From assembly GCA_910587405.1 (NCBI GenBank), contig CAJUKS010000001.1:197325-261324 (forward strand): 64,000 bases of DNA, in the 5' to 3' direction. The position numbers were made by a program, and so were the translations under genes. Position 1 is the stretch's first letter. The number at the start of each line of letters is the position of its first letter. Origin of the DNA: an uncultured Alphaproteobacteria bacterium. Its GTDB lineage: Bacteria; Pseudomonadota; Alphaproteobacteria; RF32; CAG-239. The notes beneath the pieces were generated by a model. That model had not been told where the DNA came from, searched no databases, and saw only the letters and a program-made list of their open reading frames with translations. Positions 30,714 through 33,700 of this stretch are shown piece by piece.

Positions 30714-33700
30714 ATGAGTAAATTTACATTGAGCACCTTTGCAAATGATGTAACCGAAAGCCTGGGATTTAAACATACCGGTTATATATTAAGAGAATTT
30801 GATGAAAATGGTACATTAATAAATTCTTTTATTATTGAATTGATCCCTGATAATGAAGTGTCTTCTTCAGGATCTGAAATTTCTTATGTGCATTTTAATA
30901 TCTCACAAGAAACGCCAACAGCAGCTATCGGAAACACTTTAGCAGAAGATGATGAGGCCGTTATTGCTTTTCATAAGATACGTTTAGAAGCCACCTTTTT
31001 AAATATGTTTACAAAAAATATATGGTATGTTCCAACTGCACGAAATTGCAATTCTGCGACAGCATATTTTTCGAAATATTTACCAGGGAAAGATGTTTTT
31101 GCAGGGTTGCCGGAAGCCTACTATTTGGGGAGAGACTATGCTTTTGATAATGATTACGGGCTTACTGGTATACTGGGTGGCAATATAATACAGTCTGTGG
31201 CTAGTGTTATGGAGAGAGTATATAAAGTATTAGATAATGATTTTGATTACGTAACTGCTGATCTTCATCTTGATATGAAATCTGATGGCGCTTGTCTAAT
31301 CATTACCGACTCAAATAAGAATTATATTTTTGACGATGCAAATAACTGCTCTTTTATAAATGATGATAAAGATAGTATTATTTATCTGGGGGGAGGTCAT
31401 AATGTATTAAACGCAGGTAATGGTAATAATATTATTTATGGAGGAAGTGATATAGATTCTATAATTGCTGGAGATGGCAAAAATATAATTTATGGTAATA
31501 ATGGGTATAATTATATTCGTACTGGCAATAATAATGATGTGATATACGGCGGCAACGATTTTGATGATGTTTACGGTGGCAGTGGTGATAATACTGTATA
31601 TTTAGGTGCCGGGAGTGATAAATATACCGGTGGGGATGGTGTGGATATTGTAGATGGAGGGGCGGTTGCGCGTATTGTTACTGATTCGAAAGATACTAGT
31701 TATATATACACATTTTCCCAAGATTTATCGACGGATCGGAATGAGATACATCTTGAAGGCGGAGATGATCAGTATACGGGAGGAAACGGTGTTGATATCG
31801 TGTATACGGGTTGGGGCAACGATGAAGTTCATACGGGGATGGGAGATGATATAGTTTATACGGATGACAATTGCCGGGCTACAGATAAAAACAAGGTATG
31901 GTTAGGCGGCGGAAGCGATGAGTTTCACGGCGGAGACGGTAATGATATTGTCGATGGCGGTTCAGGTCTCAATGAAGATAAAGACAGTGATATTAATACG
32001 ATACATTTAGGTAACGGAAAAAATAAATATACGGGAAGCCGCGGAGTTGACATTGTTTACGGCGGCAATGAACGGGACGTGATACACACCGGCGAAGGCA
32101 ACGATGTTATACATGGCGGAGAAGGCAGTGATATATTGTGCGGCGGCGGCGGAGAAAACATTATTTATTGCGGGTCTGACCGTCAAACCGACTGGATCAT
32201 GACGGGAACGGCAGGCGCAGTAGACAAGGTTTATAACTATACGCAATATGATGTTATCAGCTGTACCGGCGGGTATTCGCATGTGGAAGACGTGGGGAAT
32301 GACCGTATTTTGTACGGTCGTAACGGCAACAAGATAATTTTGATCGGTGCGGCCAAAGATGATGATAAAGATGATGGAGATGACAATCCGGGAGGAAGCT
32401 CCGGAGGCAGCTATTCATCGGGACGGATGCCGTTGATTTATGAGCCCAGCGGTCGTGTGCTTAGATGGAGAGGGGATAAATATGAAGACAGCGGTGTAAA
32501 GTGGCCGCCGTATGAAGAACAGCCGGATGAGAAAGTTATTGATAATCTTCCGTTAATTCCTGACGATGGTATGCCGCCGGAATATCCGAAGGAAGAAGAT
32601 TTGCCGTTTGATCCTGAGAACCCGCAAGATCCTTCGGAGGGAGGCGAGGTTAAAATACCTTGGGACGAACTATTGAAAGGGCAGATTGAAGCTCTGCTTA
32701 AATTAATAGAGAGTTTATTCGGTGTAGCAGAGGAGACGCGTTCGCCGTTGGTTATTGATTTGGACGGGGACGGGGAGATCGAAACTACCAGTGCGCGGGC
32801 AGGAGTTTATTTTGACCATGACGGAAACGGTTTTCGGGAAAACAGCGGCTGGGTTGGACAGGACGACGGTTTGCTGGTGCGTGACATCAACGGCAACGGT
32901 CAGATTGACGACGGCAGTGAGCTGTTTGGCAACCATACGTTGTTATCGAACGGGGAGAAGGCGGCGAACGGCTTTGAAGCGTTGAAAGATTTGGACAGCA
33001 ACGGTGACGGCGTGTTTAACGCGTCGGACGAAGCGTGGAACCAGATTATGATCTGGCAGGACCGCAACTCGAACGGTAAAGTTGATTCGGGGGAGTTGCT
33101 GACGCTTGAAAGCGCCGGGATAGCGGGGATTGATCTTGACTACACACACCAGGAAGTTGTTGACGCCAACGGCAACGCGCACAAACAAAGCGGCACGGTC
33201 ATCAAGAGCGACGGAACGACCGGAAGCATAGCCGACGTTTGGTTTGATACCAACCCGGAAGCGACAATCGACGATTTGCAGACAGAAATACCGGAAGCCG
33301 TTCTGGCTTTGCCCAACATCTCGGGTTCGGGCAACGTTCATAACCTCCATACCGCAATGGCGCTGGATGAGAGCGGGATTTTGAAAAACCTGGTCTTGCA
33401 GTATATCGGCGCAACCGATGCGGTCACGCGCGACAGTTTGTTGGACGAGATTATATATCGCTGGGCAGGGGTATATGAGATGGATCCGGAAGGGCGTAAC
33501 CCGAGCCGTTTTTACGGCAATGTTCTCGGTGACTGCCGCAAGCTTGAGGCCTTGGAGGAATTTTTGGGCCGGGAGTATTTGGGGGTATGGTGCACCGGGG
33601 AGAGAGACCGCAATCCGCATTGTCATGCGGCGCCGTATCTGTTGCAGGCGTATGACAAGTTGCAGGATTATGTGAAGAGTTGTTTGTTGCTGGAAGGCAA

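Follow-up and report, generated by a model that had tools for sequence, protein, structure and literature searches.

The open reading frame (ORF) at positions 30714 to 38057 (+) of the 64,000-nt stretch of alphaproteobacterial DNA analyzed here (contig CAJUKS010000001.1 of assembly GCA_910587405.1; hereafter the window) encodes a 2,447-aa RTX protein that begins with a separate, non-RTX domain, residues 1 to 229. Our analyses make it reasonably probable that this N-terminal head is a permuted papain-like cysteine hydrolase acting as the lipid-directed toxic payload of an N-terminally polymorphic type I secretion system (T1SS) toxin, with an immunity gene upstream. The evidence comprises a conserved protein family with invariant residues, the predicted topology of the domain, allele replacement at the locus, a conserved gene pair, and the T1SS context.

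The original prediction, made from the letters of the window, had recognized a non-RTX N-terminal domain of about 230 residues lacking a signal peptide, and both points are borne out. Gly/Asp-rich RTX-like repeats set in at about residues 226 to 260, and a signal peptide is absent because there is no hydrophobic stretch in the first 40 residues (maximum 19-residue Kyte-Doolittle mean, 0.4); none was found anywhere in the full-length protein either (maximum, 1.11). The two motifs that it quoted were located in the ORF, i.e., WYVPTARNCNSATAYF, which contains Cys112 (codon 31047 to 31049), and DYAFDNDYG, residues 141 to 149. A Pfam scan of the ORF matched only HemolysinCabind and HCBP_related, with no significant match in residues 1 to 229, and a PDB sequence search found no match to the domain. 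The head is AT rich, with a G+C content of 0.34 versus 0.53 in the constant part of the toxin gene, and the two ORFs upstream of the gene have a G+C content of 0.25. Within the head, the predicted catalytic core spans about residues 1 to 175 (30714 to 31238 [+]) and is followed by a beta-rich connector, residues 176 to 229 (31239 to 31400 [+]), that leads into the first Gly/Asp repeats. In the AlphaFold2 model of residues 1 to 228 the connector strands (183 to 189, 192 to 198, and 203 to 207) are of lower confidence; the connector is conserved in relatives such as P0004.

A word-indexed homolog search with residues 1 to 240 returned nothing because the representative of the 90% cluster is a 5′-truncated copy of 1,897 aa. 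An exhaustive phmmer search detected about 10 true relatives (E values down to 1e-20, 28 to 39% identity), all of which carry the domain at the N terminus of RTX proteins or fragments. The phmmer matches to P0005, whose repeats bear a GFKHTGW motif, and to the protocadherin-like eukaryotic protein P0007 were discarded as spurious. Two contig scans added 38 loci, 3 from genomes and 35 from metagenomes, the latter all from human gut. The family is small and has so far been found only in uncultured gut Alphaproteobacteria, with 37 N-domain ORFs in 8 clusters (at least 70% identity). In short relatives of 649 to 984 aa, the domain is the sole non-RTX part. In the most divergent member, at positions 1320 to 1802 of locus L045, HSGY replaces HTGY, VCN replaces NCN, and the spacing does not follow the rule of a Tyr seven residues before the Cys; this member is helpful in deciding which features are essential.

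In an alignment of 20 family sequences, with members 29 to 36% identical to the window protein, H21, T22, G23, L26, F86, Y105, N111, C112, N113, and F144 are invariant. At position 42, 18 sequences have Asp, one has Glu, and one has Asn; the window protein has Glu42. The cysteine of the NCNS motif, already singled out by the original prediction, is the best catalytic candidate, being invariant in 20/20 relatives and placed, like that of papain-like enzymes, at the N terminus of a predicted helix. The downstream partners proposed for it (DYAFDNDYG followed by a His) fared differently. Phe144 is the sole invariant residue in that region, position 146 is variable, and the conserved core does not extend to His185; the downstream His and Asp are accordingly not supported as catalytic residues. 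The candidate catalytic residues that emerge from the alignment and the model are His21 (30774 to 30776), Glu42 (30837 to 30839), Tyr105 (31026 to 31028), and Cys112, all on the plus strand.

AlphaFold2 modeling with the family alignment gave a predicted local distance difference test score (pLDDT) of 80.6 for residues 1 to 228 and, for the core (residues 1 to 174), a pLDDT of 90.1 and a predicted TM score of 0.87. The core model consists of five strands (3 to 12, 19 to 29, 35 to 45, 57 to 65, and 71 to 78), with His21 near the start of the second and Glu42 in the third, and then helices 79 to 97, 112 to 122, and 155 to 173, the second of which starts at Cys112. This arrangement matches the circularly permuted NlpC/P60 core, five strands and then helices, described by Xu et al. 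(PMC3142127), who name a Cys/His/polar/Tyr catalytic set, in PPPDE1 C108/H38/E47/Y101. Hallmarks of the permuted group in sequence and predicted topology recur in the window family: the catalytic His would precede the Cys in sequence (H21 and C112, both 20/20), the predicted five-stranded sheet comes before the helices with the Cys at a helix N terminus, and a Tyr (Y105, 20/20) shortly before the Cys is joined by a polar third residue (D/E/N at position 42, 20/20) on the predicted strand after that of the His. Tyr105 lies at Cys −7, exactly as Y101 does relative to C108 in PPPDE1. Because the conserved His (His21, in an HTG motif) lies upstream of Cys112, the domain would be of the permuted papain-like type rather than of the classical order. 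Of the Cys/His/Asp hydrolase or transglutaminase-type fold proposed originally, the cysteine thus stands, and the classical Cys-His-Asp order and the transglutaminase assignment do not.

Comparisons with known families gave a set of weak signals. Against the PDB, the family profile matched only two entries, both PPPDE/DeSI-1 (3ebq and 2wp7), across Y-x-L-x-x-NCNT. Aligned by hhalign with 72 DESI1 sequences (DESI1 query verified as identical to 3ebq), the 20-sequence family profile reached 81% probability over 38 columns (E value, 1.2e-5), pairing Y105 with Y101 and C112 with C108; with a single DESI1 sequence the probability was only 35%. The PPPDE profile is shallow because the DESI1 homolog search yielded only near-identical vertebrate orthologs, and in global hhalign the His regions of the two families were not aligned. 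Peptidase_C97 was the only recurrent subthreshold Pfam match, weak in 3 of 11 family members. Foldseek, which the original prediction had suggested for examining the fold, returned only noise with the 228-residue model; with the trimmed core model the top PDB match was TseH (6v98; E value, 0.079; TM score, 0.32). The top match in BFVD was a picornavirus polyprotein (probability, 0.98), the match being given for the polyprotein as a whole. None of these signals is significant alone, and all the weak ones point to the permuted papain-like NlpC/P60-PPPDE group. We rate the N-terminal domain as a new family within a known superfamily, placed in a new delivery architecture.

The head is mounted on a carrier that recalls FrpC. 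An RTX-like Gly/Asp repeat scaffold (about residues 230 to 560; 31401 to 32400 [+]), recognized by NCBIfam RTX-type matches over residues 214 to 549, and a Pro/Glu-rich linker read from the sequence (about residues 563 to 667; 32401 to 32714 [+]) complete the variable N-terminal cassette. They are followed by a conserved junction (SLFGVAEETRS/P, the slash standing before the Pro) and a FrpC-like self-processing module (SPM; 32715 to 33366 [+]). The SPM is on record for the toxin gene as PF26745:SPM and matches the FrpC SPM (6sjw) in phmmer with an E value of 3.7e-42 from residue 678 to about residue 843. It lies, as in FrpC-type proteins, between an N-terminal passenger and the RTX repeats. 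The remaining, constant body (33367 to 38057 [+]) comprises a helical segment, RTX nonapeptide blocks with HCBP_related units (Pfam HemolysinCabind, E value of 3.5e-109 in 27 stretches; HCBP_related, E value of 1e-30), and a C-terminal type I secretion end (AGDNLLKKAG). A 1,157-aa antisense ORF inside the RTX gene (32943 to 36416 [−]) probably reflects the G/C-rich codons of the repeats on the opposite strand rather than a gene. Divergent from the toxin gene lie those for an HlyB-type T1SS ABC transporter with an N-terminal C39-like domain (25462 to 27615 [−]; TIGR01846, 1,028 bits; Peptidase_C39, ABC_membrane, and ABC_tran) and an HlyD-type periplasmic adaptor (24057 to 25520 [−]; TIGR01843, E value of 7.5e-116). 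The hydrophobic pore-forming domain of RTX cytolysins of the HlyA/CyaA type is absent from the toxin, in which hydropathy peaks at the 1.11 given above, and a scan limited to the ORFs that separate hlyB from the toxin gene gave no match to an HlyC-type acyltransferase.

FrpC cleavage requires the side chain of the Asp before the Pro, which forms an anhydride (PMC7078468). In the window protein, Ser677-Pro678 (32742 to 32747) occupies the place of FrpC Asp414-Pro415, and all 17 SPM copies examined (window, L002, L009 to L016, and L041) have Ser-Pro, not Asp-Pro, in one of four junction contexts (ETRS/P, SQSS/P, TTRS/P, and KTKS/P). As to other FrpC residues, the equivalent of D478 is Asn, and W451, W519, and D579 are kept. 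Judging from these residues, the module may be either noncleaving or able to cleave by a chemistry other than that of FrpC, and the conservation of the Ser suggests that it has a function.

Comparison of conspecific genomes revealed that the head is replaceable. The 90% protein cluster of the toxin contains alleles of 2,447, 2,027, 1,686, and 1,670 aa, whose differences are confined to the part before KDLFGVAEETRS/P and which are near-identical from KDLFG(V/E)AEETRS/PLVIDLDGDG onward; the constant body of the window allele is 96 to 97% identical in nucleotides to that of alleles bearing other heads. Cross-allele nucleotide homology begins only at position 32715, i.e., at residue 668. At this chromosomal site, the constant body was found with four different heads, each with its own polytopic ORF directly upstream. 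Head A (P0148) and head B (P0145) are hydrophobic and Gly rich, with upstream ORFs of 263 and 258 aa, respectively; head C (P0149; upstream ORF, 291 aa) is a compact HTGY/NCN domain of the same family fused directly to the SPM; and head D, that of the window protein (upstream ORF, 232 aa), combines an HTGY/NCN domain with the RTX-like scaffold and linker. Ahead of the common junction, the alleles have unrelated N termini, apart from the HTGY/NCN domain type common to heads C and D. The heads of P0145 and P0148 have no Pfam match. Residues 1 to 190 of P0145 and 1 to 180 of P0148 (L010 and L012) contain glycine-zipper-like hydrophobic stretches, e.g., AAGALIGVIFAGAPVMIPLTIAAGVGYF, and these heads may be membrane-inserting toxins. 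The window head had originally been regarded as either an effector or an adhesive head; the exchangeable slot that it occupies is also used by lysozyme-like heads and by hydrophobic, glycine-rich ones, which favors an effector over an adhesin.

Displaced modules persist next to the gene. A 388-aa orphan made up of head A and an SPM is retained at the loci with heads B and C, and in L009 and L010 this orphan is intact at the position where the window has an orphan 3′ half of an SPM (28840 to 29177 [+]), an exact 338-nt copy of 33029 to 33366 left over from a displaced 5′ module. If the two 338-nt direct repeats recombined with each other, both membrane ORFs and the entire variable head would be lost. 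A further relic (27983 to 28335 [+]), in which a 97-aa ORF precedes the frameshifted and decayed beginning of an SPM (VYFGHDGNGF; recognized by alignment to 32690 to 32860), is present in all conspecific loci and probably derives from the oldest displaced head. The locus hence has the constant delivery region, variable tip, tip-specific adjacent gene, and orphans of a polymorphic toxin system. It does not have the C-terminal toxin and downstream immunity gene of such systems, the variable part being residues 1 to 667 and the partner genes lying upstream.

Beside the main toxin, L009 encodes a second T1SS substrate of 838 aa (12127 to 15166) with a Phage_lysozyme head (E value, 1.4e-7) and no SPM. 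It has the same C-terminal end as the window toxin and a scaffold 78% identical in nucleotides to window positions 31733 to 32353, and it is preceded by a 158-aa signal-peptide ORF, which encodes its candidate immunity protein. This lysozyme-headed RTX neighbor and its signal-peptide partner point to an antibacterial role.

The gene pairing extends across the family. In all eight N-domain clusters, the ORF immediately upstream is on the same strand at a gap of −3 to 58 nt and encodes 150 to 306 aa with 4 to 9 predicted transmembrane segments; in the background, at least four such segments occur in only 4 of 99 ORFs. In the window, this ORF (30003 to 30701 [+]; 232 aa) ends 12 nt before the toxin ATG, has about six predicted transmembrane segments, and gave no Pfam or NCBIfam match. 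Its position and predicted membrane topology make it the candidate cognate immunity protein of head D. Its first nine codons (MSDVNVSET, 30003 to 30029) are the start of the allele B toxin gene seen in L010, and therefore the incoming cassette appears to have been spliced in just after the allele B toxin start codon; this chimeric start would mark the left recombination junction, and the native start of the ORF may be Met16. The preceding polytopic ORF (29211 to 29987 [+]; 258 aa) is 100% identical to that directly upstream of the 1,686-aa allele in L010. As the window genome has no head B, it would be the retained partner, a candidate orphan immunity gene, of that head. Grouping the upstream membrane ORFs of different loci into one family was tried and rejected, phmmer and profile comparisons against shuffled controls being negative. 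The proposed immunity role therefore rests on position and membrane character only, and such divergence fits fast-evolving immunity proteins. Promoter and terminator scans of 27500 to 31000 did no better than shuffled sequences.

Taken together, the data suggest the following scheme. Residues 1 to about 175 would fold as a permuted papain-like hydrolase of the NlpC/P60-PPPDE-LRAT group, with a putative catalytic set of Cys112 at a helix N terminus, His21 (HTG) at the start of strand 2, the acidic position 42 in strand 3, and Tyr105. The adjacent HlyB/HlyD system would export the toxin C terminus first, to fold on extracellular Ca2+. Within the species, recombination where the constant FrpC-like SPM begins would replace one head by another, each being brought in with the gene for its own polytopic inner-membrane protein directly upstream, and the 30003 to 30701 product would guard the producer and its kin. 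In the envelope of competitors, the head would cleave a fatty-acyl ester or amide on membrane lipids or lipidated molecules. Tox-Act1 and TseH, two permuted NlpC/P60 effectors of type VI secretion systems (T6SS), act as phospholipases, and Tox-Act1, whose toxicity is confined to the periplasm, has a membrane-anchored immunity protein (PMC12994826). Permuted NlpC/P60 enzymes, including PPPDE1, have hydrophobic S1 pockets (PMC3142127). Because of these phospholipases and pockets, and of the action of LRAT/PLAAT enzymes on lipids, a lipid-directed acyl hydrolase is the most economical reading and, by analogy, lipid-directed acyl hydrolysis in competing bacteria would be the most likely activity of the head.

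Several observations weigh against this scheme. No match reached a curated or conventional significance threshold: for Peptidase_C97 (gathering threshold, 29.2 bits) the best relative scored 16.4 bits and the window protein gave no match, the PPPDE profile match is confined to 38 columns around the Cys with the His region unaligned, and the TseH structural match is weak. The upstream membrane proteins of different clusters have no detectable mutual homology. The scheme does not account for the route by which a T1SS-released protein would cross the target outer membrane. Release of the head by the SPM is uncertain, since the module lacks the Asp nucleophile of the known cleavage chemistry. Finally, a host target is possible, the nearest relatives in sequence being the PPPDE/DeSI proteins, which are isopeptidases/depalmitoylases of eukaryotes.

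That last point underlies an alternative in which the head would be a host-directed PPPDE/DeSI-like isopeptidase or depalmitoylase (deSUMOylase/deubiquitinase type) delivered to eukaryotic gut cells by the RTX carrier, as the N-terminal enzyme of CyaA is. PPPDE proteins, named in sources as desumoylating isopeptidase or palmitoyl-protein hydrolase, are the only sequence-level relatives outside the family, SPM proteins of the FrpC and ApxIVA type come from pathogens, and the organism lives in the gut. We nevertheless find a host-directed enzyme improbable given that the head-specific adjacent membrane ORFs and orphan modules are a signature of interbacterial toxin-immunity systems, that the protein has no hydrophobic translocation domain and the scanned ORFs no HlyC-type acyltransferase, and that the alternative heads in the same slot are hydrophobic and glycine rich, with a lysozyme head next door. 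The lysozyme head of the sister T1SS toxin in L009 could in turn be taken to favor a peptidoglycan amidase or endopeptidase of the classical NlpC/P60 kind, lysing competitors by cutting cell wall peptides, as could the predicted fold-level membership of the NlpC/P60 superfamily and the long-standing annotation of TseH as a peptidoglycan hydrolase. In the permuted members characterized so far, however, the S1 pocket is hydrophobic and the substrates are lipids (PMC3142127 and PMC12994826), and the head partners are polytopic membrane proteins whereas that of the L009 lysozyme head has a signal peptide; on balance, a cell wall target seems rather unlikely.

Two readings without a toxic enzyme are both very unlikely in our judgment. 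Papain-like peptidases are often processing domains in polymorphic toxins (PMC3482391), and a domain that cuts its own carrier might make up for the Asp missing from the SPM, which has Ser-Pro in place of Asp-Pro. Yet the domain sits at the extreme N terminus with nothing upstream to free, alleles A and B have the same RS/P junction and no peptidase, and in the 649- to 984-aa relatives the domain is the sole non-RTX part, with no SPM to compensate for. As for a noncatalytic binding or adhesive head that retains a papain-like scaffold, the weak structural matches and the lack of enzymatic evidence are compatible with it; against it, the defining four residues of the NlpC/P60 active site show no change or only conservative replacement at 29 to 36% identity, and pseudoenzymes normally lose such residues.

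The preferred reading, a lipid-directed permuted hydrolase with upstream immunity, can be extended to a more general proposal, which we advance tentatively as something nearer an open possibility than a probability. Gut Alphaproteobacteria may possess mirror-image polymorphic toxins in which a T1SS-exported RTX carrier has its N-terminal heads swapped, together with upstream immunity genes, at the SPM, with orphans piling up on the 5′ side and the Ser-Pro SPM perhaps releasing the head by another chemistry, e.g., an N-to-O acyl shift. If true, the head would represent a new family of permuted NlpC/P60 toxins, a group not demonstrated to target lipids until 2026, and T1SS/RTX proteins, usually viewed as host-directed cytolysins or adhesins, could bear exchangeable antibacterial warheads in human-gut bacteria. 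The polarity would be the reverse of the C-terminal toxin and downstream immunity of the retrieved literature, with no earlier description found in the searchable literature. The Ser-Pro SPM variant would constitute a natural test of the contribution of the Asp, of relevance to the NeissLock protein-ligation technology.

As regards the wider window, a permuted (two-piece) alphaproteobacterial transfer-messenger RNA at 3661 to 4006 (−) (RF01849, 212 bits) places the organism in the Alphaproteobacteria, and no uptake sequences of the Neisseriaceae or Pasteurellaceae (DUS/USS) were found in the window. An origin from a Neisseria or Kingella FrpC locus was considered and rejected on these two grounds. 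A tRNA-Arg(TCT) gene (38164 to 38240 [+]) about 100 nt past the toxin stop codon may bear on the acquisition of the island. Upstream of the T1SS genes lie an autotransporter with a Chlamydia-PMP-type repeat (13934 to 17419 [+]) and a fused DUF4422 and glycosyltransferase-8 protein (20908 to 22923 [+]).

Among known proteins, PPPDE/DeSI-1 (Peptidase_C97; 3ebq and 2wp7) shares with the window domain the order His, Tyr, Cys, the H-T-x and N-C-N-T motifs, the Tyr at Cys −7, and a resemblance past the Cys helix (L-x-G-x-x-(V/I)...L-P). It differs in a beta-sheet half that does not align, in other insertions, and in a His-Cys spacing of 70 residues versus 91; PPPDE proteins are eukaryotic or viral and cytosolic, whereas the window domain is bacterial, RTX fused, and secreted. 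TseH of Vibrio cholerae and Tox-Act1 of Salmonella likewise deploy a permuted papain-like domain as an antibacterial payload, a role that the window domain would share, although no sequence-level similarity to it was detected. Their delivery route is the T6SS and their immunity genes lie downstream, whereas the window toxin is a T1SS substrate with an N-terminal domain and an upstream partner, and Imm-Act1 has two transmembrane segments versus about six in that partner. A conserved His box and an Asn-Cys motif far downstream are also found in the LRAT/H-rev107 (PLAAT) enzymes, which perform lipid acyl-transfer or phospholipase chemistry, and in picornavirus 2A proteins, some of which are LRAT-like H-box/NC proteins. 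The window family has NCN-T/S-S/A-T instead of NCEHF, and its N-terminal domain gave no Pfam LRAT match.

At the level of the whole protein, the clip-and-link proteins FrpC, FrpA, and ApxIVA have the same order of N-terminal passenger, SPM, RTX repeats, and T1SS signal, and differ in having Asp-Pro as the scissile pair where the window has Ser-Pro and in the D478 position occupied by Asn in the window. The N terminus of FrpC binds the FrpD lipoprotein, whereas window-type passengers are polymorphic and paired with membrane ORFs. Polymorphic toxins in the papers retrieved carry the variable toxin at the C terminus with immunity downstream, and literature searches turned up no account of an SPM-RTX carrier whose N-terminal head is polymorphic. 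The contact-dependent inhibition (CdiA-CT/CdiI), Rhs, and MafB systems resemble the window locus in their constant delivery body, variable tip, adjacent tip-specific small gene, displaced orphan modules beside the active gene, and low-GC cassettes. In the window locus their polarity is reversed, with an N-terminal tip, partners and orphans upstream, and secretion by a T1SS.

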